A stretch of 64,000 nt of DNA, taken from positions 431,892-495,891 of the forward strand of contig CADEHE010000003.1 of NCBI GenBank assembly GCA_902826775.1, in the 5' to 3' direction. This DNA comes from an uncultured Pseudomonadota bacterium. Lineage in GTDB: Bacteria > Pseudomonadota > Gammaproteobacteria > Burkholderiales > JALYOK01. How positions within the stretch are numbered: the first letter of the stretch is position 1; every line of letters begins with the position of its first letter. Both the position numbers and the translations under genes were made by a program. Shown in pieces: positions 44,968 through 55,800 of this stretch. Under the pieces are notes generated by a model that searched no databases, was not told the origin of the DNA, and saw only the letters and a program-made list of their open reading frames with translations.

Positions 44968-45627
44968 ATGGCCAAGTCGAATACCGATCACTTTTTGGAC
45001 AACAACAAACAGTATGCCGGCGGGCAAGCGGTTCATAAGGCTGTCCATCCCGGCAAGCAACCGATACAACCGTCCAAGCGCGTTGCCGTTGTGGCGTGCA
45101 TGGACGCGCGCTTGGACGTGGAAGACCTGCTCGGTTTGCAGACAGGCGAGGCGCATATCATCCGCAACGCCGGTGGTGTGGTCACCGAGGATGCGATCCG
45201 CTGCCTCATCATTTCGCATCACTTGCTCAACACCAACGAAATTATCCTCGTGCATCACACGCGCTGCGGCATGCTGGCCTTTACCGATGATCTGCTCAAG
45301 GCGGGCCTCGAAGGCGACCCAGCCGCCGAGAAACTACTCGGCCAAGCCACTGCGCGCCGATTTACCAGCTGCCACAAATCCGCTGCGACACCCGCTTCAT
45401 TCCACGCTTTTCGCGGTCCGATCGAGGCGCTCGACGCGCCGCGCGATGCGAAAAACAGCGAGCGCCTTGCCTGGGATGTGCGGCGTGGCATGTCCGCAAT
45501 CTTGAACCATCCGTGGCTGCCCACCAGTGGCCCGGACGCAATCACGGTGCGCGGGTTCATATACGATGTCGACACTGGAAAACTCGATGAAGTGAGCTAT
45601 CCGGGACCGATGGGATCGTTTGGCTGA
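44968..45627 (+). CDS. beta-class carbonic anhydrase
   Basis: Zinc ligand motifs '[11 protein letters not shown]' (CxDxR) and 'HHTRCGM' (HxxC). The RBS is GAGGAG. Confidence 0.85.
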
Positions 45628-45787
45628 GCGAACCGGGTTCGCGTTACTGAATCGTCGCATGCAGCATCACACTCGTGTTTGCGCTAGAAATCTGTTGCCA
45701 ACGCGATGCAGTTAACCAGCATACGAGCTATTGTATGCCCTTCACATCTAGACTCAACAAGGCTTAACAAAGAATACCATTGACTGT

Positions 45788-46465
45788 ATGCCTGTACTGC
45801 CAGCAATTGAACTCGCCACCGGCCATAACCCCGTCGGCACGGTGATCTGGATGCACGGCCTTGGCGCCGACGGTAACGACTTCGTTCCGGTGGTGAAGGA
45901 ACTCGGCTTACCCGACACGTTGCCGCTGCGCTTCATTTTCCCGCACGCGCCGATGCGCCCGATTACCATCAACAATGGCTTCGTCATGCGTGGCTGGTAC
46001 GACATTCTCGAACTCGGTGCGCTAGAGCGCCGCGTCGACGAAAAGGGCATTCGCGAATCGCAAGCCGCGATTGAAGCCTTGATCGCGCGTGAAATCGAGC
46101 GTGGTATCGCCGCCGGCAAAATCGTGCTCGCGGGATTCTCGCAAGGCGGCGTCATCGCCCTGCAAACCGGCTTGCGCCATAAGGAAAAGCTGGCCGGCAT
46201 CATGGCCTTGTCGACCTACCTGGCGCTGCAATCGACCCTCGCGCAAGAGGCGAGCAGCGCGAACAAAGACATTCCGATTTTTCTGGCGCACGGCACCCAC
46301 GACGACATCATCCCGATCCAACTCGCCCATGCGAGCCGCGATGCATTGACTCGTGCCGGCTACAAAGTCGAGTGGCACGACTATCGCATGCCGCACTCGG
46401 TGAGTCCGGATGAGATCGAGCATATCGGCGCATGGCTGCGGCGCGTGTACCAAGTCGAGAGCTAG
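45788..46465 (+). CDS. carboxylesterase / phospholipase family alpha/beta hydrolase
   Basis: 'VIWMHGLGADGNDF', nucleophile 'GFSQGG', and 'LAHGTHDDIIP'. Confidence 0.85.
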   Translation: MPVLPAIELATGHNPVGTVIWMHGLGADGNDFVPVVKELGLPDTLPLRFIFPHAPMRPITINNGFVMRGWYDILELGALERRVDEKGIRESQAAIEALIAREIERGIAAGKIVLAGFSQGGVIALQTGLRHKEKLAGIMALSTYLALQSTLAQEASSANKDIPIFLAHGTHDDIIPIQLAHASRDALTRAGYKVEWHDYRMPHSVSPDEIEHIGAWLRRVYQVES

Positions 46466-46596
46466 TGAGAATCACAAAGTGCGCGAAGACAAATTCCCCC
46501 GCAAGCGCAGCGTATGAGAAGAAGTTCGTGTAATCCCCACTAGCCGCACTTTCGATCCATCGGTCCAACAGCACGGCGAAGGCGAGTAGAGGCCTA

Positions 46597-47262
46597 ATGG
46601 AATTCAAACTACGCCTGCTTCAACAGTTCAGCCGTATTACCAAGGCACTCAGCAGCGCCAACCGTCTGCAACTGTTGGAGCTACTCGCGCAAAGCGAGCG
46701 CAGCGTCGAAACTCTGGCGACTTTAACCGGCATGTCTGTCGCTAATACCTCACGCCATCTGCAACAGCTGCGCATCGCCGGCCTGGTGCGCAGCCGCAAA
46801 GACGGACTATACGTCTACTATCAAATTTCCGGCGGCGGCGTGGTGCGTCTGCTGCACGCGCTGGGCGAAGTGGCGGAAAACAATCTCGCGGAGGTGTCGC
46901 AGCTCATCAGCGAATTTCTCACCGCACGCGACTCGCTCGAACCTGTCCCCCATCAAGAACTGCTGCAACGCGCCCGCAAGAGATTGGTCACAGTGATCGA
47001 CGTCCGCCCCCCGGAAGAGTTCGCCGCCGGCCATATCCCGGGTGCAATCAACGTACCGCTCGCCGAACTCGAACGCTGGGCACGCGGCGTGCCGAAAAGC
47101 AAACAGATCGTCGCTTATTGCCGCGGCCCGTACTGCTTGATGGCGTTCGAGGCCGTCGCGCGGCTGCGCCGCAAGGGTTACAAAGCGCGGCGGCTGGCGG
47201 ACGGGTTTCCGGAGTGGAAATCCGCCGGATTGCCGCTGGAGTCTGAGGCCAGCGAGCGCTGA
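46597..47262 (+). CDS. ArsR-family transcriptional regulator fused to a rhodanese domain
   Basis: wHTH region 'LSSANRLQLLELLAQSERSVETLATLTGMSVANTSRHLQQLRIAGLV'. Rhodanese region 'VIDVRPPEEFAAGHIPGAINVP...VAYCRGPYC'. Confidence 0.85.
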   Translation: MEFKLRLLQQFSRITKALSSANRLQLLELLAQSERSVETLATLTGMSVANTSRHLQQLRIAGLVRSRKDGLYVYYQISGGGVVRLLHALGEVAENNLAEVSQLISEFLTARDSLEPVPHQELLQRARKRLVTVIDVRPPEEFAAGHIPGAINVPLAELERWARGVPKSKQIVAYCRGPYCLMAFEAVARLRRKGYKARRLADGFPEWKSAGLPLESEASER

Positions 47263-47282
47263 CGGGGCCGGAGGCGCAGGGA
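47249..47282 (+). repeat. 34-nt imperfect direct repeat, copy A (spans the arsR-rhodanese stop codon)
   Basis: ccagcgagcgctgacggggccggaggcgcaggga matches 52446-52479 at 29 of 34 positions, including a 13-nt identical run. Confidence 0.45.
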
Positions 47283-47383
47283 ACGAGTTGATGCCGGCCA
47301 CCGTCATCGCCAGTTCAGATACGCCCGGGCCCTCGATCAGCAGCGATCCCCGACATTGTCGCGAACAACTTGTCAGAGGTTCT

Positions 47384-49300
47384 CTAAGTCTTCGTGACTC
47401 GACCTTGAGCGATGTGCACTCGCTGACGGTCAAACGAGCGGAACGTAAACGAGACTGGCCGTTCCGCATACTCCGCAGTGCGCTTGCGAAGGATCTCGAT
47501 GGCGATCTCCTCGCCGAGCCGCAGACTACGCGTATTGTCGGTACGCCAGTGCACGCCACCCATCGAGCGGCCCATGGCGACATTGCTGGCGATCTTGTTA
47601 AGTTCGCCACCGACTGTAAGTCTACTCGCGTCTGCTCCGTTGTACTGTTTCGGATCGCAGAAAGCTTCGAGATCGGTTCCCGTCTTCCGAAACCCGGGTT
47701 GAAGCAGCATCAACTGTCCACCAGGCGGATCTGCGGGACCGATCTTCTGCGGCGAGGACGCGTCGTTAGCGGCGTCAAAGATCATTTGCATCGGTTTGTC
47801 TTCGTCGAACCAAGCCTTGAGCGCCGTGACGCAGGCCCCAGCCACCGTAGCGTGTCCAGCGCCGTATGCCGGGTGGCTAGGCGAACCGGCGGAAAAGGCC
47901 ATTGGTAAGAAAAGGGTGCCCGTGCCGCCATTGAGTGCCGAATTGTGGCTCTCAACCACGTTTAGCGTTTCGTCGAGTTTGCTCTTGAAATCCGGAGTAC
48001 CAGGAAGAGTCGTTGGCAGGTCGTATTTTCGCAGTTCTCCTCCGAAGCCCTTGCGTTGCATCTGAATCAGTCCGGCCATTACTTCTGGACGACACCGGCG
48101 GTGTACAAACCACTTTTGGCGCCAAACGACTTTAAGGGCGCGACTGGCCACTTCGGAAACTAGGGTCAACAAGTCCGGCCCTCCGAGTGTGGCGAACCCA
48201 GTCTCTCGAGAGTAGCGGTTGCCGCGATACGGATTGCCCTCGCCCGCTGGGGCGCCGATGCCAAGTAAGAATAAGGCGGCATTGAAGTAGGCTTGGTGCA
48301 GGGCATCGCGGTTGACGAAGCGTGCGATGTCGCGCATGGTCGAGATGAAGCGCTTGGGATTTGCGGCCGGATAGTACGTTGCACCGCGGTTCTGCTGATC
48401 AGAAAAGTTGTTGCATGTGCCGTAGTCACGGCCATATTTGTCTTTTCCGGTATTCTGCGCGAGCAGCCAGTCCTGGTGACTTGTAAGAAAGTCCAGCTTG
48501 GCAATATAGGGCACCTGACGCGGATCGATCTCCTGCACACCGAAGGCGATCGGGCGCAAGAAGAACTGGCTGATCAGCGGCCCGTGCTCCTCGTCATGCA
48601 GTCCGCTGCGGAACAATCTCTGCAGCGTAACGCTGGCGCCGCCGACACCTGGAGCCACATCGAGCGGGGCGCGCAGTTTGCCAAAGTCGGTGTCATGCTG
48701 AAGCGCGATGTCGAACATCTTATTCACCGCGTCGCGCGCTAGGTCAACCCGGTCGGTAACGTTGTAGCCGAGCTGGGCGTTGTGAGCATCAACGTTCGCG
48801 CATCCTGCCCCAGGCGTGCCTTTGCTACTTTGGAAAGCCAGCAGCGGCGCGTCGCGCAGCAGCGCCATCCAGTACAGTTCCACCATCTCCGCAGTGGCCG
48901 TGAGCGAGCGACACCCTGGAGCGGGCAACATCTCGAGGGTCTTGGGATCCGGCCCCAGCGATTCGGTTGACGCCCCAGCCATTGGGCTAACAAACTTCGC
49001 GGCGGACTTGGTTAATGCTTCTATCTCGGAAGTTGGTGATCCACCCAGAATGAACGCCGTTTGCGGTACGTCTGGCGATGGCTCAAGCGGGCCTTGGCGC
49101 ACTCCTTCGAAATTCACTGGCGCACCCGCTTCAATGGCGATACAGCGACGTTCAAATTCGCGGTAGGCGTCAGGAACTACTTCACCGAACTTGTTGTGTG
49201 GCAAGGTCTTGTGAAAATTGCCGATGAATGGTGCATTGTCCGTAGTCAGTCCTTTAGTGCTGACCAGGCTTTCGTCTGCATTTGGGGTCGGGAAGGGCAT
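47384..49300 (-). CDS. vanadium-dependent haloperoxidase family protein (PAP2 superfamily)
   Basis: 638 aa. 'KTLPHNKFGEV'; motif 1 'QKWFVHRRCRPE'; motif 2 'HPAYGAGHATVAGACVTALKAWF'; motif 3 'GRSMGGVHWRTDN'. No signal peptide. Two spot counts give about 53-55% GC. Confidence 0.72.
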   Translation of the reverse strand: MPFPTPNADESLVSTKGLTTDNAPFIGNFHKTLPHNKFGEVVPDAYREFERRCIAIEAGAPVNFEGVRQGPLEPSPDVPQTAFILGGSPTSEIEALTKSAAKFVSPMAGASTESLGPDPKTLEMLPAPGCRSLTATAEMVELYWMALLRDAPLLAFQSSKGTPGAGCANVDAHNAQLGYNVTDRVDLARDAVNKMFDIALQHDTDFGKLRAPLDVAPGVGGASVTLQRLFRSGLHDEEHGPLISQFFLRPIAFGVQEIDPRQVPYIAKLDFLTSHQDWLLAQNTGKDKYGRDYGTCNNFSDQQNRGATYYPAANPKRFISTMRDIARFVNRDALHQAYFNAALFLLGIGAPAGEGNPYRGNRYSRETGFATLGGPDLLTLVSEVASRALKVVWRQKWFVHRRCRPEVMAGLIQMQRKGFGGELRKYDLPTTLPGTPDFKSKLDETLNVVESHNSALNGGTGTLFLPMAFSAGSPSHPAYGAGHATVAGACVTALKAWFDEDKPMQMIFDAANDASSPQKIGPADPPGGQLMLLQPGFRKTGTDLEAFCDPKQYNGADASRLTVGGELNKIASNVAMGRSMGGVHWRTDNTRSLRLGEEIAIEILRKRTAEYAERPVSFTFRSFDRQRVHIAQGRVTKT

Positions 49301-49575
49301 TTCAATTTTCCTTTTATTGCACGTTTAAGAACGATCTTTGGGGACTGCGAGCGAGCAGTGTAGATATAGGTTCGAGTTTCTGTCCCAACCCGATCAGGTG
49401 GGAATGCAAGCTCTAGACTACTTTCGCGTCACTTCCGCCGCGAACTTGCTCAGACGGAGTCGAGTTGCTTACCTCGAGTCAGTCGCAACTACCGTTGAAT
49501 CGTCTGCTGTTTTATCCAGGTGACCTACCTGGCAAAGCTTCTCGCGCGCACAGTGCCTGGCATCGTGTTGGGCCA

Positions 49576-49803
49576 TTCGCCGCCGGCCACATCCCGGGCG
49601 CCATCAACGGTCCGCTCGCCGAACTGGAGCGTTGGCGGCGCGGCGCGCCGAAGAACAAACAGATCATCGCCTATTGCCGCGGCCCGTGCTGCTTGATGGC
49701 GTTCGAAGCCGTCGCACGGCTGCGCCGCAAGGGCTACAAAGCGCAGCGGCTTGCGGACGGGTTTCCGGAGTGGAAATCCGCCGGGTTGCCGGTGGAGTTC
49801 TAA
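49576..49803 (+). pseudogene. displaced 3'-end remnant of an arsR-rhodanese paralogue (rhodanese domain only)
   Basis: By my hand alignment it is about 89% nt-identical to 47020-47242. It encodes 'FAAGHIPGAINGPLAELERWRRGAPKNKQIIAYCRGPCCLMAFEAVARLRRKGYKAQRLADGFPEWKSAGLPVEF*'. The upstream part of ORF 49465.. is unrelated sequence. Confidence 0.75.
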
Positions 49804-50202
49804 AGCAACCAACGCTGATCCGCTTTGGCCAAAAGTCGTTCGCTAACTCACGTAAAGCGAACGGCGGCAGCGAATGGGCCGCTGCACGAAGACATAGAAA
49901 ACACGCTGGGCGTTTTACGCTTCGTCCCGAATCCGTAAGTGCGCGAATAATAGAAGCGACCCGTCGGGACGTCCGCTCCGCCCCGCGCCGCGATCAGTGC
50001 GTGGCTCAAGCATTCCGCGTGCGCGGAATCATCTCTCGATGCGAACTTCGGTGAAATTCACACGCGTGGGTCTAGCGCACTCGCGCGGCGCCGCGAGCGG
50101 CGTGAGGGTGATTTTGCCGCAGCCGTCCCGGCAATAAGTCGCTCGCGCGGCACCGCGCCGCCGACTTCAATGAGCATCGTCTGCTCACAAGGAGAACTGC
50201 CA

Positions 50203-52197
50203 ATGTTGACTCTTTCATCCAAGTTCTGCGCGCGCGCCGTCACGGCGGCGGCCGCGCTGCTCTTCGCCGGATCCGCTCTGGCAGCGCGCGAAGTCGATCC
50301 CGATATGGATCTGCCGGACCCAGCGCCCACCAAGCCGCCGCTCGAAACTCGGCCCGTGAAAATTCCCGCGAACCCGCCAGAGGTAGCGCTGCCTGGACCC
50401 GATACCTATCCGCGTGCCGCGCAACCGATCGATGTGCCCATGCCGGGCGGCGGCATGGCCCAAGTGCGTCCCCTGAAAACCGTGCTCACCCTAGCCAAGC
50501 GCGAGGCACTGGCCGATCGCTTGATCGTTGTATTCCGCAAGCCGGAAACGGACGAAAGCGCCGCACACACGCGCGCAAGCAAGTTCGGCGCCGGCATCGC
50601 CAAGCCGCTACTCAAAGTCGGGCGCAAGGGCGTGCTCGTAGATGTGTCCGGCGCGGCGTCGCTGGAAGACGCAGCGCGCGCTTACCTGAGCGATCCCGAA
50701 GTCCAATACGCAAGCCCGGATTGGGTCATGCACAAACAAGAAATCCCTAACGACCCCTCGTTCGGCAGTCAATGGGGAATGACCACCATCCAAGCGTCGC
50801 AGGCCTGGAATCGCACGCACGGCTCGCCCGGCGTACGCATCGCAGTGCTGGACACCGGCATCAACGAGCTCCACGCTGATCTCGCCGGCAAAGTCGTCGC
50901 ACGCCGCGATTTTACCGGCTCCGGCAGCGGAACCGATGACATCGATGGCCATGGCACCCACGTCGCCGGTATAGCGGCAGCATCAACCAACAACGCCGCG
51001 GGCGTGGCGGGCGTGGGCTACGACAGCAGTTTGATGAACGTCAAAGTGCTGGACGACAGCGGCAGCGGCAGCGTCTCGATGCTCTACAACGGCATCTACT
51101 GGGCCACGGACAACGGTGCGCACGTCATCAACATGAGCTTGGGCTCCGATGAGCAAGATTGCAGCACATCGTGGTGGGAAGACTTGTTCGATGTCGGCCG
51201 CAACGAACTGCGCGATTCCATCAACTACGCCTTTGATCGCAACGTGGTGCTGGTCGCCGCCGCCGGCAACAACGGCGCCGACCAGCAGCAATGGCCAGGC
51301 GCCTGCCCGAACGTGCTATCCGTCGCAAACACCAACAGCGCGGATATGCGCTCGGGCTCGTCCAACTTCGGCACCTGGGTCGATGTCGCCGCACCGGGCG
51401 CGGGCATTTTCTCCACCGCAGTGCCTGGGGCCAGCAGCTGCCAGAACGGTTTGATGGGTGCGTTCGCCAACTGCAGCGGTACCTCGATGGCGTCGCCGCA
51501 TGTGGCGGGCATTGCCGCGCTGGTGCGTTCAAGTTGCGGCATGACCAGGGCGAACGACATCGTCAATCGCATCACGAGCACAGCCAATGCGATCGCCGGC
51601 ACTGGCACGCTGTGGCAGTTTGGCCGCGTGAACGCGTTGAACGCCGTGTGCTTTCCCGCTCTAGCGCCGCGCATCACCGCGGAAAACTCGACCAGCATCC
51701 AACTAGGCTGGAGCGACCGCACACCGGGCGAGACGCACTTCGAAGTCTTCTGGCAAATAGTCGGTGGAGCCGCTGCCAGCGTGATCCTGCCCGCCAATAG
51801 CACCAGTTTTCTGCACAGCGGATTAAGCACCGGCTTGGATGTGGACTATTTTGTGCGGGTTTGCGATGCACTCGGCTGCTCGGATTGGTCCAACCCAGTA
51901 CACGGGAACACCGGCTCCTCACTGAAGGTCTCGCTCTCCGGCGCCGGCAAGGTCACCAGCAGCCCAGCGGGTATTAACTGCGGCGGCGGCGCTTCGGACT
52001 GCAACGAGGCGTACTTGCCGGGTACCATCGTCAGACTGACAGCGAGGGGATCCGGTAATATCAACAAGCCCGTCTATTGGCTGTTCGATCACTGGGATGG
52101 CGCCTGCGCGGGACAAGGCTACGTTTGCACGCTCACCATGAGCGCGGCGCGCAGCGCTAAGGCGGTGTTCGTGCGCGAAACCAACGGCGGGCTATAG
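50203..52197 (+). CDS. secreted subtilisin-like S8 serine protease with FN3-like and InlB-B-repeat-like C-terminal domains
   Basis: The ATG at 50203 follows AAGGAG. Signal 'AAALLFAGSALAA'. Catalytic triad 'VLDTGI', 'HGTHVAG', 'GTSMASPHVAG'. C-terminus 'VSLSGAGKVTSSPAGINCGGGASDCNEAYLPGTIVRLTA...FDHWDGAC'. Confidence 0.88.
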   Translation: MLTLSSKFCARAVTAAAALLFAGSALAAREVDPDMDLPDPAPTKPPLETRPVKIPANPPEVALPGPDTYPRAAQPIDVPMPGGGMAQVRPLKTVLTLAKREALADRLIVVFRKPETDESAAHTRASKFGAGIAKPLLKVGRKGVLVDVSGAASLEDAARAYLSDPEVQYASPDWVMHKQEIPNDPSFGSQWGMTTIQASQAWNRTHGSPGVRIAVLDTGINELHADLAGKVVARRDFTGSGSGTDDIDGHGTHVAGIAAASTNNAAGVAGVGYDSSLMNVKVLDDSGSGSVSMLYNGIYWATDNGAHVINMSLGSDEQDCSTSWWEDLFDVGRNELRDSINYAFDRNVVLVAAAGNNGADQQQWPGACPNVLSVANTNSADMRSGSSNFGTWVDVAAPGAGIFSTAVPGASSCQNGLMGAFANCSGTSMASPHVAGIAALVRSSCGMTRANDIVNRITSTANAIAGTGTLWQFGRVNALNAVCFPALAPRITAENSTSIQLGWSDRTPGETHFEVFWQIVGGAAASVILPANSTSFLHSGLSTGLDVDYFVRVCDALGCSDWSNPVHGNTGSSLKVSLSGAGKVTSSPAGINCGGGASDCNEAYLPGTIVRLTARGSGNINKPVYWLFDHWDGACAGQGYVCTLTMSAARSAKAVFVRETNGGL

Positions 52198-52224
52198 CCG
52201 CTGCTGAGCAGTCCCAATAAGAGT

Positions 52225-52255
52225 AGCGAGGCGGCCATGCCGCCTCGCTTTTTTT
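52225..52255 (+). terminator. Rho-independent terminator
   Basis: agcgaggcgg-ccat-gccgcctcgc followed by ttttttt, 28 nt after the protease stop. Confidence 0.85.
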
Positions 52256-52445
52256 ACTTTCGCCAAGTTACGTAGCTACGCAATGCTGCCGCGAGAAGTA
52301 ACTTCCGGCTCCATCGATCGAGAAGGGGCAGCGCATAAGCCAGCGCTTGCATGCATTGCCGCCTCGCCGAGGGCCAGGGCCGCTGCTGGTTTTGGCGATG
52401 CGCTCGCTTTGAACGTCAACGGAAACATAAGGAGCCGGGCGAAGA

Positions 52446-52479
52446 CCAGCCAACGCTGACAGGGCCGGAGGCGCTGGAA
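52446..52479 (+). repeat. 34-nt imperfect direct repeat, copy B
   Basis: ccagccaacgctgacagggccggaggcgctggaa matches 47249-47282 at 29 of 34 positions. Confidence 0.45.
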
Positions 52480-52862
52480 GATCGAGATCGACCCATTCTG
52501 TCCCTTCAGCACTCGCTTTCTGAAGTCGGCAATAGTGCGTGCTCCCGACATTGAATTTCGAGGCTTCTGTTAGGCTCGCGAGATGTCCCGGCATCCACTA
52601 GCGATGAGCCATCCAGGCGACTATCGGAGAAGCCTGTCTCGACGCCGCTCCACTGCCCGTAACAAATCTCCACACATTCTGTAACAAGCCTTCACATTCG
52701 CGCCTTGCGAGCACCTACGGCGGTTGCGTATCGTGCGTGCCTGCTGAATCCGAGTCCACCGCTCTCGACTCGTCGATTCCGTTCTAGCTTTCGGGGAAGT
52801 GAATGACTGCGACGCCATCGGGTCCGCGTCGTCTTGGCGTGTTGCTCTAAGGGGGAGGAATC

Positions 52863-55800
52863 ATGCGTCATCGAATCATGCGCACGTGGGTTATTGTACT
52901 TTGCGCACTTGGCTTGGTCTCTGGAATCGCCAACGCTGCCGAGCGCGCGATCATCAAATACGCACCAGCGTTACTACCCAACACCAACACCGCCTCCTAC
53001 TTCAATACGCTCGAAGCCGCCTGCCAGGAATATGCGAAGCGCCTCAATCAAGGCGGTGGGCAATATCGCGTGGTTGGTAGCGTCGTGACCACTCCGGCGC
53101 AGTACCAAAGCGTCACCTCCGGTCCATACGTCAATGGGCTCATAACGGCGGGCAACTATCAATGCCGCCTTTTGGCAGCCGGCGCGACGGCACCGACGCT
53201 GGCCGGTGCCAACGGTGCCGGATTCTGCGGCAGCAAGTTCGTCTTTGACGGTGTCAACCCTTACGGCAACTGCGCCTGCCCGAGCGGCAGCACCGAAATC
53301 AACGGCGCCTGCCACGCGCCCAACCTGGGTTCAACTGCCCGTGCGCCCGCGCCGGTTTCGAGCAGCGCCCCGGCGCGTCCGCAGGCCTGCCAAAGCCAAG
53401 GCCCAACCCAGTTTGGCAACCCCGTGCACGGCGCCACTGGCAACAAGTATCAGAGCGAGAGCGACTACGCCAGCGCGGATGGGGCATTGCGCTTCGAGCG
53501 CCATTACAACAGCCAAGGTCCCGAGTACGGACGGCGCCCCATGGGTGCGTTGTGGCGCCATAGTTATGATGCCCGCCTGGAGCGCATCACCGACACACTG
53601 CTCAAGGCCTACCGGGCAAACGGCCAGGTCATCGTCTTCGCCAAGAGCGGCACCGCTTGGAACGCCACTGCCGAAGTAAGCGATCGCCTGAGCGAAACCG
53701 CAACCGGCTTCAGCCTGATCAACGGCAACGAAGACATCGAGTACTACAACCTCGGCGGGCAGTTAAGCCGCATCCAAAGCCCCTCGGGTCAAGAACTCAA
53801 CCTGATTTACTCCGACGCCAACACCGCCAGCGCGATTGCGCCCCTGCCAGGGCTACTCATCCGAGTCGAAGACAGTTTCGCCCGCGCCCTATCGCTTCGC
53901 TATGACGAGAACCTACGCATCGTCGAACTCACCGACTCCGCCGGTAACCAGTACACCTACGGCTACGATGCCAACGAGAACCTGACCAGCGTCAGCTACC
54001 CGGATGCCACCCCGCAAGACCCGAACGACAATCCCAAGCGCCTGTACCACTACGAAGACAGCCGCTTCCCCAATGCACTGACGGGCATCACCGACGAGAA
54101 CGGCACACGCTTTGCCACTTACGCCTACGATGCCCAGGCTCGGGCGATCAGCAGCGAGCACGCCGGCGGGGTCATGCGCTATCTGCTGTCGTTTAACGCC
54201 GACGGCAGCAGCAGCGTGACCGACCCACTCAACACTGCGCGCAGCTATTCGTTCCAGACCATCCTCGGGGCCATACGCAACGCCAACGAGAGCCAGCCCT
54301 GCCCGAGCTGCGGCGGCAGCAATATTGCCGCGCGCAGCTTCGATGCCAACGGCAACGTCAGTGCGGCCACGGATTTCAACGGCAATCAAAGCACTTACGT
54401 CTACGACCTGGCGCGTAACCTCGAGCTCTCGCGCACAGAAGCCGCCGGCACTGCGCAGCAGCGCAGCATCACCACCGAATGGCACCCGAACTGGCGCCTG
54501 CCGACGAAACTGACCGAGCCCAATCGCGTGACCGAATGGAGCCATGACGCACAAGGCAACGTGCTCACCCACAAGGTCACCGACAGCGCCACAGGGCTAT
54601 CGCGCAGCAGCAGCTACACCTACAACGCGATTGGCCAAGTGCTCACCGCGGACGGGCCACGCACCGACGTGATGGACGTCACCACCTACACCTACTACCC
54701 CAACGACGCCGGCCAAGGCAATAAGCGCGGCATGCTCGCTTCGGTTAGCAACGCGCTCGGCCATACGGTGCTGATCACCGACTACGACGCGCATGGACGC
54801 GCGCTGTCGATGACCGACGCGAACGGCTTGGTCTCCAGCATGACTTATGACGCGCGCGGGCGCCTCACAAGCCGCACCGTCGGCAGCGAAACCACCGTCT
54901 TTGAATACGACGGCGCCGGCCAGCTCATTAAAGTCACGCTACCGGACGCCAGCTTCGTGCGCTACAGCTACGACGCCGCGCACCGCTTGACGCAAATCCT
55001 GGATCACCTCGGCAACAAGATCGTCTACACGCTGGATGCCATGGGCAACCGCACGCGCGAAGACGTCTACTTCCCCAACGGCACGCTGGCGCAGACGCAC
55101 TCGCGTACGTTCGATGCGCTCAATCGCCTGCATCAGGAAATCGGGGCGTTGAACCAGACCACCACCTACAGCTACGACAGCCAGGGCAACTTAAAGACGG
55201 TCACCGACCCGCTCGGGCGCGCCACCACGCACGGCTACGATGCCTTAAACCGCATGAACAAGGTGACCGATGCGCTAAGCGGCATCACACTCTACGACTT
55301 CGACGCCAACGACCGTATCCGCCAAGTCACCGACCCGCGCGGACTGGCGACCGTCTATAGCTACAACGGCTTGGACGATCTGCTACAGCAGCTAAGCCCT
55401 GATACCGGCACCACCCACAACACGTACGATTCCGCCGGCAACCTGGCCACGACCCAAGATGCGCGCGGCGAGATCACGCGCTACAGCTATGACGCTTTGA
55501 ACCGCGTCAGCAGCATGAGCTATGGCACTACCACGGTGAGTTTCACCTACGATCAAGGCGCCTACGGCAGAGGCCGGCTAACCGGCATGACGGATGCCAC
55601 CGGCGCCACCACTTGGGAATACGACGCCCAAGGCCGGCTCGTGACCCACACGCAGCGCACCGGGGCAACACTCACCAAAACGATGCGCTACGCCTACAAC
55701 AACGCCGGGCAGTTGATCAGCCTGACCTACCCCTCGGGGCGGGTAATGGAGTATGTTTACAGCAACGGCCAAGTAAGCGAGGTGCGCTCCGGCGCTCAAG

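Follow-up and report, generated by a model that had tools for sequence, protein, structure and literature searches.

We describe a 64,000-nt stretch of bacterial DNA (hereafter the window; all positions are window coordinates on the forward strand) in which the 3′ end of a regulator gene of the ArsR type occurs three times: at the end of the intact gene itself (copy A, 47020–47280), as a 5′-truncated fragment beyond a haloperoxidase gene (copy B, 49576–49818) and as a short relic beyond a protease gene (copy C, 52438–52492). Our data point to these copies being recombination scars in a composite island, which would have been built at an insertion hotspot between the stop codon of the regulator and its probable operator, with B coming from a sister lineage; we consider this a reasonably probable account of the locus. 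The three partial gene-end copies are mutually diverged and sit at the joints between modules, and a comparison with close relatives suggests that the end now attached to the gene is the native one.

Two copies of the regulator's 3′ end

The gene at 46597–47262 (plus strand) is intact and encodes 221 aa, in which Pfam finds HTH_5 at residues 22–66 (E = 7e-11) and Rhodanese at residues 120–209 (E = 1e-18). Its predicted product is an ArsR/SmtB-family regulator, a winged helix fused to a C-terminal rhodanese domain with an active-site cysteine loop. Full-length homologues run into the thousands, the nearest of them (P0001) being 95% identical at the amino acid level, and the CRGPYC loop is conserved, with Y present in 101 of the 120 best homologues that we surveyed residue by residue.

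Copy A (plus strand) comprises the last 243 nt of this gene together with 18 nt of downstream flank, which we call F1. BLASTN of the regulator against the window recovers the A/B pair (E = 2e-70), which a preliminary description of this DNA had reported as two copies about 89% identical. Aligned without gaps, 47020–47242 and 49576–49798 differ at 24 of 223 nt (89.2% identity; about 25 differences had been counted before). The homology runs for 20 nt more, with a 1-nt insertion and a 1-nt deletion, up to the stop codon at 47262/49818, giving 87% identity over 243–244 nt. Its boundaries are sharp: the flanking 80 nt on each side are 26–29% identical, which is the chance level, and the sequence 5′ of 49576 is unrelated to that 5′ of 47020, as had been noted. 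The longest identical run is 32 nt (47197–47228/49753–49784). The first 14 nt of the repeat are also identical in A and B, and runs of that length are expected by chance at 86–89% identity.

Copy B (49576–49818, plus strand) extends from codon 142 to the stop codon. Alignment and Pfam agree with the preliminary description that it retains the C-terminal half of the rhodanese domain and lacks the winged helix: only positions 25–101 of the 102-position rhodanese profile are matched, the helix-turn-helix domain is absent, and the loop reads YCRGPCC in B against YCRGPYC in A. The two indels in the tail of B yield a premature TAA at 49801–49803, and three of its substitutions, V153G, A162R and Y179C (the last within the CRGPYC loop), are found in 0 of the 120 homologues. 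Because the domain is truncated, the frame is disrupted and these substitutions are unseen in homologues, B is a decaying pseudogene fragment, and it likely has no present function. The pattern of change points the same way: nonsynonymous and synonymous changes number 7 and 2 on the B branch, whereas the A lineage has 3 and 9, respectively (Fisher P = 0.03); all 6 private changes of A are synonymous.

At the left edges of both A (47022–47032) and B (49578–49588) the minus strand carries GGCCGGCGGCG, one mismatch away from a motif in F1, GGCCGGAGGCG. The latter lies on the plus strand at 47266–47276 and 52463–52473, 3′ of the stop codon in A and in C, and an imperfect 11-nt inverted repeat thus brackets the duplicated unit. 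The window as a whole shows no enrichment of the F1 motif (7 matches, 4 expected).

The native copy and the history of copy B

The close relatives of the window are metagenome-assembled genomes or metagenome contigs, and the source of the window itself looks metagenome-derived. Closest are L081 and L082, a pair of identical metagenome contigs whose regulator is P0001 and which have the upstream esterase gene in common with the window; they carry no haloperoxidase after the regulator. Against L082 the window is 93.6% identical in the 5′ 423 nt of the regulator and 93.3% identical in A, the two parts being collinear, and identity does not change abruptly at 47020. The values for B are 88.8% against L082 and 89.2% against A, while L001, which served as the outgroup for polarisation (regulator 89% identical at the amino acid level), is 78–79% identical to all three. 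With B as its historical partner, the 5′ part of the gene should differ from L082 at about 48 of its 423 nt; it does so at only 27 (binomial P = 5e-4). The C-terminal tail of the L082 regulator is likewise of the A type (LPLESKASQR versus LPLESEASER in the window). Because the haloperoxidase-free L082 carries an A-type end and divergence is uniform across 47020, A is by this comparison the vertically inherited, native 3′ end. The preliminary description had taken A for a surrogate end brought in by a haloperoxidase element and B for the displaced original; the relatives that lack the haloperoxidase speak against this polarity.

The relationship of the two rhodanese segments argues in the same direction. 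A and L082 have a derived state in common at sites 47034, 47090, 47229 and 47236, where B retains the ancestral letters found in every outgroup (C, C, G and G, respectively); G at the position corresponding to 47073 and A at that of 47160 are further states diagnostic of B. A single site groups otherwise, and B falls outside the A and L082 pair. On these sites B appears to have branched off before the lineages of the window and L082 split. Its excess divergence is nonsynonymous (dN, the nonsynonymous distance, is 0.056 versus 0.006), and it is small: B has accumulated 9–12 changes, whereas neutral evolution at the synonymous rate of the A branch would have produced 24 since the A/L082 split and 36 since the origin of B itself (Poisson P = 5e-4 to 4e-6). 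B is thus too little changed for a long free drift, and the simplest reading is a recent truncation, before which it had for most of its history been part of an intact regulator gene under selection.

That gene does not seem to have been a neighbour. L082 has no second regulator within 445 nt downstream of the first, and no tandem paralogue was found in close relatives, so the intact source of B was most likely in another, related genome. Two intact tandem regulator paralogues around a haloperoxidase, the arrangement that the preliminary description named as telling against an insertion, are seen in 0 of the about 160 related loci that we surveyed for regulator context. Among the 120 best homologues there is no intact B-type regulator, in the sense that none comes nearer to B than A and P0001 do.

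Some variation of the neighbourhood lies apart from the three copies. The upstream side of the regulator is variable too: L001 has two extra genes (659–2294, 1.6 kb) between esterase and regulator, and L081 has a transglutaminase-like gene (480–1568) where the window has a beta-carbonic anhydrase (44968–45627). In ten more distant relatives of the Thiobacillus/Hydrogenophilales type (L012, L015, L022, L024, L025, L026, L028, L035, L036 and L042), whose regulators are ∼55% identical at the amino acid level, a second, ∼50% identical rhodanese-type paralogue lies 1–4 kb off, sometimes inverted. These paralogues are unrelated to copy B and have no haloperoxidase near; they show that local duplication occurs in the family.

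Copy C and the 5.2-kb insert

Copy C (52438–52492, plus strand) consists of the last ∼25 nt of a regulator gene (..KTSQR*) with the stop codon, F1 and a 15-nt native flank, F2. It is 87% identical to positions 1945–1998 of L082 (E = 5e-10), a segment which spans the regulator stop codon and its downstream flank, and F2 is common to L082 and C. The homology of L081/L082 to the window covers the whole regulator and stops at 47276, and the next ∼50 nt match window positions 52440–52492. In other words, the A-type end of L082 runs straight into the flank that the window has after C.

Compared with L082, an extra 5.2 kb of DNA (47281–52442), comprising the haloperoxidase, B and the protease, is present in the window. 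This DNA lies between two 35-nt direct repeats on the plus strand, each made of gene tail, stop codon and F1: the left one (47246–47280) marks the left edge of the DNA absent from L082, and the right one (52443–52477) lies inside copy C. They are 86% identical, and their longest identical run, GGGCCGGAGGCGC, shared by the tail of A and C, is 13 nt long; such runs are expected by chance at 86–89% identity. The tail of B and copy C differ at 5 of 10 positions to the left of a shared CCAACGCTGA.

Part of the module order is confirmed by L165, a Logan contig that represents an independent short-read assembly and was seen in 4 samples. It is 100% identical to the window over 49755–56361 (6607 nt), which covers the 3′ part of B, the protease, C and the RHS gene beyond it in the same order. 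The contig begins 2 nt into the 32-nt exact A/B run, and its other end lies 30 nt into an exact repeat within the RHS locus; a k = 31 assembler is expected to stop at such points when the repeats are real.

About 30 nt to the left of C, the minus strand at 52389–52411 matches 46690–46712, in the part of the regulator gene that codes for the helix-turn-helix, over 23 nt (87%, inverted). This match is not significant alone (E about 0.3); its position beside a regulator relic is suspicious.

A composite island between the regulator and its probable operator

The full extent of the additional DNA is seen from four further relatives (L002, L047, L084 and L085, with regulators 78–81% identical at the amino acid level). 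In all of them the regulator is followed by genes for an acyl-CoA dehydrogenase (ACAD) and a PhnD-like binding protein, with spacers of about 60–120 nt; the counterparts in the window lie at 59152–60336 and 60350–61210, respectively. The native sequence after the regulator in these relatives is a palindrome, TATTCAAGC-GAAT-GCTTGAATA (GCTTGAA(T/C)A), located about 20–25 nt after the stop codon (at ∼10673–10694 in L047). In the window it is found as TATTCAAGC-GAAT-GCTTGAACA at 59137–59158, where it is unique (0.01 matches expected by chance) and ∼11.9 kb away from the regulator gene. The palindrome is probably the ArsR-type operator of the ACAD/PhnD-like/TusA-AurF-like/EgtB-like operon.

Because the regulator directly adjoins the palindrome and the ACAD operon in four relatives, positions 47263–59136 (∼11.9 kb) can be taken as inserted: on this comparison they are a composite island, extra DNA in the lineage of the window, with its right end at or before 59136. 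That DNA was inserted at the 3′ end of the regulator, with partial copies of this end marking the joints, had been proposed in the preliminary description and is supported by the relatives that lack the insert. Its view that the copies bracket only a haloperoxidase gene, on the opposite strand and AT-richer, stands in part: the haloperoxidase is indeed the only credible gene between A and B and has a lower GC content, but the insert is far larger, 5.2 kb against L082 and about 11.9 kb against the four others.

What follows the regulator differs between lineages. The site holds a minus-strand FG-GAP-like gene in L082, other sequence with no ACAD within 587 nt in L001, and the haloperoxidase, protease and RHS modules in the window; altogether at least four different contents are found downstream of the regulator among the relatives. 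The 3′ side of the regulator is thus, on these comparisons, an insertion hotspot whose content is different in each lineage examined.

A Pfam search of all sizeable open reading frames (ORFs) and of the small ORFs in 47263–59136 returned no integrase, transposase or resolvase domain, in agreement with the earlier remark that no recombinase remains. No integron-type or dif-type core site was recognised at the joints, where they were looked for by eye only. A plasmid origin was rejected, only gene-level matches of 71–76% identity having been obtained, and a search for structured RNA at the joints with Rfam gave nothing at E ≤ 1 over 45500–60000.

Close to the right edge, at 59106–59113 and ∼25 nt before the palindrome, the window has GCTGACAG, which equals the stop-codon region of C. 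These letters may be what is left, at the right edge of the island, of a fourth and minimal copy of the regulator end, or they may match by chance (rough P about 0.03).

Origin of the copies

If the copies are recombination scars, B would have been carried in together with neighbouring DNA after the lineage of the window had split from that of L082, and would have been decaying since. A possible source is a chromosomal piece of a related strain, circularised or linear, that recombined via the short homology around the stop codon. A concrete route can be proposed in which a circle composed of the B tail, the protease, C/F1 and the haloperoxidase crosses over with the recipient within the ∼35 nt of tail/F1 homology. 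The product would be the regulator with the A tail and F1, then the haloperoxidase, B, the protease and C/F1-F2, which is the observed order, and the illegitimate joint of the circle would be 49575/49576. The 35-nt repeats are only 86% identical and the tail of B and C are unlike, which suggests more than one event or source. The composition of the genes fits separate origins of the modules, since the haloperoxidase is atypical in its G+C content at third codon positions (GC3) while the GC3 of the protease and RHS genes is host-like.

Several observations weigh against this account. The contigs L081/L082 are short and reach at most 445 nt downstream of the regulator. The outgroup L001 is saturated at synonymous sites (synonymous distance dS 0.9–1.5), and the counts of polarised sites are small; one site, 47162, groups A with B, which could reflect gene conversion. 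The synonymous distances are nearly equal (0.33 between A and B, 0.30 between A and L082), so the branching order rests on the four sites given above. We found no donor genome with an intact B-type regulator beside the protease or the haloperoxidase, and we infer the import rather than observe it. Repeats of 35 nt and 86% identity are a poor substrate for recombination of the RecA type, and the joint between the haloperoxidase and B (49575/49576) lies outside the independent assembly L165. Finally, an ancestor resembling the window could have reached the state seen in L082 through a deletion between the 35-nt repeats.

This last possibility belongs to the alternative that survives best, namely duplication in place. 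Here the insertion of the haloperoxidase would have duplicated 261 nt of target, and the later insertion of the protease about 20 nt; B and C would be old copies of this lineage's own gene end that have decayed in situ, and recombination between the repeats would have removed all of it from the L082 lineage. Two nested duplications reproduce exactly the order of A with F1, haloperoxidase, B, protease and C with F1 and F2, a deletion between 47246–47280 and 52443–52477 gives the exact joint of L082, and the ratio of 2 synonymous to 7 nonsynonymous changes on the B branch is neutral-like. However, B lacks the four derived sites of A and L082, so the duplication would predate their split, and the 9–12 changes present then fall short of the 24–36 expected. 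The differences at half of the ten positions left of CCAACGCTGA between the tail of B and C are also unexpected for copies of one source, and a target duplication of 261 nt is required; we know of no insertion mechanism that makes one, save a single crossover with a homologous fragment. We therefore regard duplication in place as unlikely.

Integration of a haloperoxidase element by site-specific recombination at codon 142, with A supplied as a surrogate end, B displaced and the recombinase lost later, is the model of the preliminary description and has in its favour the layout of the locus. An intact gene, cargo and a 5′-truncated direct copy of the 3′ end is the arrangement of icd, e14 and icdC (PMC13626634). 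A and B begin with 14 identical nt, the haloperoxidase has an atypical GC3, and B is a decaying copy, all of which would be in keeping with it. Against it stand, besides the A-type end of the haloperoxidase-free L081/L082 and the even divergence on both sides of 47020, the 5′ part of the gene, which is too similar to L082 to have been the partner of B (P = 5e-4). Integration before the L082 split would need at least 24 neutral changes in B, where 9–12 are present, and A is attached to the 18-nt chromosomal flank F1, which is also found in L082 and C. No recombinase is encoded in 47263–59136, 14-nt identical runs are expected at 89% identity, and the longest run (32 nt) lies elsewhere in the repeat. 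This model is in our judgement improbable.

We give equally little credence to serial site-specific capture, according to which the stop region (..GCTGAC..GGCCGGAGGCG..) would be an attachment site for cassettes devoid of a recombinase, each capture leaving a copy of the site (the tail of A, the tail of B, C and possibly 59106–59113). It accounts for the copy of tail and stop codon at every module boundary, for the at least four different downstream contents among relatives and for the inverted F1-like 11-mer exactly at the left edges of A and B. But the island has no recombinase, the copies are of very unequal length (243, about 55 and perhaps 8 nt), are 11–25% diverged and share no identical core above 13 nt, the F1 motif is no more frequent than stated above (7 matches versus 4), and the homologues of the haloperoxidase and protease elsewhere are not beside such a site or regulator. 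That the regulator stop region would be a dedicated capture site, at which cassettes of one or a few genes (haloperoxidase, protease, RHS locus) are added in succession by integron-like or XerCD-like accretion driven by a recombinase encoded elsewhere in the genome, is on the sequence features at hand decidedly doubtful.

Assembly misjoins arise inside shared sequence. A chimera in which B from a co-occurring related strain was misjoined into the contig would suit a source that is apparently metagenome-derived, with relatives that are all metagenome-assembled genomes or metagenome contigs, and a haloperoxidase/B joint without independent confirmation, but it is very improbable, given that L165 (4 samples) is identical over 49755–56361 and ends only where the 32-nt exact A/B run and the exact RHS repeat lie, and that the joint 49575/49576 shares at most 14 nt with the other copy.

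The haloperoxidase, protease and RHS modules

The gene between A and B (47384–49300, minus strand) clearly encodes, by its predicted 638-aa product, a vanadium-dependent haloperoxidase with phosphatase-like active-site motifs. The protein is homologous to the vanadium bromoperoxidase structures 1qhb (E = 9e-67) and 5lpc (E = 2e-65), and the motifs RRxRPE, HPxYGxGHA and GVHW align as RRCRPE/RRLRPE, SPSHPAYGAGHA/SPFHPSYGSGHA and GGVHWRTD/AGVHYFSD; a direct Pfam-A scan gave no match at E ≤ 0.01. Its GC3 of 0.653 is the lowest of the large genes (background 0.70–0.79) and its overall GC content is 58.3% versus 60.6%, the AT-richness residing for the most part at third codon positions. Upstream of the gene, the region 49301–49575 has a GC content of 51.6%, is dissimilar to the sequence 5′ of 47020 and ends on the right in the sharp joint with B. 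Apart from a record of the same genome (P0121, 100%), the next homologues are 76–79% identical and come from diverse bacteria, and homologues 65–79% identical are present in Nitrospira, Nitrosomonas, Thiobacillaceae, Synechococcus and others. Exact-protein look-ups for the regulator, the haloperoxidase (also as P0121) and the ORF containing B returned no record. The haloperoxidase was considered as a mobile partner of the regulator fragment, and this was rejected on the one homologue context examined (P0124; L163, L164), which has no ArsR or rhodanese neighbour.

The protease (50170–52197, plus strand) is a secreted member of the subtilisin family (S8; Pfam Peptidase_S8, E = 2e-49). A database record, P0241, is 100% identical and starts at 50203 (664 aa). 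A strong terminator follows the gene at 52225–52249 and is the only convincing one found; no sigma-70-like promoter was found in 46400–52900. The idea that the protease had been the neighbour of the regulator on the donor side was dropped, as the contexts of 72–75% identical homologues (L166, L167) contain no regulator. Genes for a haloperoxidase, a protease or RHS lie near the regulator in 0 of the about 160 loci.

The right-hand module is an RHS toxin locus (52863–58847, plus strand; Pfam RHS_repeat, E = 3e-84) made up of the RHS gene (52863–57827, 1654 aa), an immunity-like small membrane ORF (57836–58135) and an orphan RHS fragment. Within the ORF at 58185–58847, positions 58195–58798 are an exact 604-nt direct duplicate of 56332–56935, after which a different short C-terminus follows. 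It looks like a classic orphan RHS fragment, and at 100% identity a recent one. GC3 is 0.76 in the protease, 0.77 in the RHS gene and 0.61 in the immunity-like ORF.

Comparison with known systems and implications

The nearest formal counterpart is found in E. coli K-12, where e14 is integrated in the 3′ end of icd and a partial 3′ pseudogene, icdC, lies at its far end (PMC13626634). Upon loss of e14, recombination between icd and icdC deletes the insert and makes a chimeric gene (PMC13626634). As at icd, and likewise with phage 21, an intact gene is here followed by foreign DNA and by a 5′-truncated direct copy of its 3′ end that differs at scattered, largely synonymous sites. Unlike this island, e14 encodes its own integrase and excises; e14 supplies the end attached to the gene, whereas here the attached end is the native one by comparison with L082, and three nested copies and several modules are present. 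Of the features of such systems, direct 3′-end repeats at both ends of the insert are found (89% identical for A/B, 86% for the tail of A and C), while an integrase and a gene end derived from the element are not seen.

Islands in tRNA and tmRNA genes grow by integrase-mediated, tandem accretion and contain displaced 3′ gene fragments. Our locus resembles them in that partial copies of the target 3′ end separate the modules and in that relatives differ in content at the site. It differs in having a protein-coding regulator as target, no integrase, and repeats that are 11–25% diverged, very unequal and without a common core. The resemblance to genomic plasticity regions is closer: four relatives have the two flanks, regulator and ACAD operon, side by side, the content differs in each lineage examined, and the cargo is typical, comprising a secreted protease, an RHS toxin together with its orphan fragment, and an oxidative enzyme that has spread horizontally. 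Pieces of the flanking gene are, to our knowledge, not usually part of the description of insertion hotspots; here they have been retained, and part of the layering can be read from them. The same island also contains a textbook case of RHS/orphan-toxin displacement, in which a new C-terminal tip enters and the old 3′ part is pushed downstream. Like A and B, it leaves a directly repeated partial gene copy; the RHS duplicate, however, is 100% identical, recent and from the same genome, whereas B is 11% diverged and falls outside the A and L082 pair. In general terms the locus belongs with the insertion hotspots that lie between conserved genes; copy B is best read as an ordinary recombination scar rather than a new kind of mobile element, and it does not point to a new mechanism.

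Some practical consequences follow for annotation: B should be marked as a pseudogene fragment and not as a small rhodanese gene, and 47263–59136 as acquired DNA. It should also be noted that the polarity of an e14-like layout is unreadable from a single genome; in this case only a close relative revealed which copy is native. For the organism, the island lies between the regulator and two elements that adjoin it in relatives, the palindrome and the sulfur-related operon. The nested relics A, B and C show a stepwise build-up, in which one hotspot took up a vanadium haloperoxidase, a secreted protease and an RHS toxin. The only likely present-day effect of B would be to serve as a substrate for recombination with A, which would delete the haloperoxidase and give a chimeric regulator; the A/B repeat thus predicts that occasional loss of the haloperoxidase, together with a chimeric regulator, may be met in this lineage.

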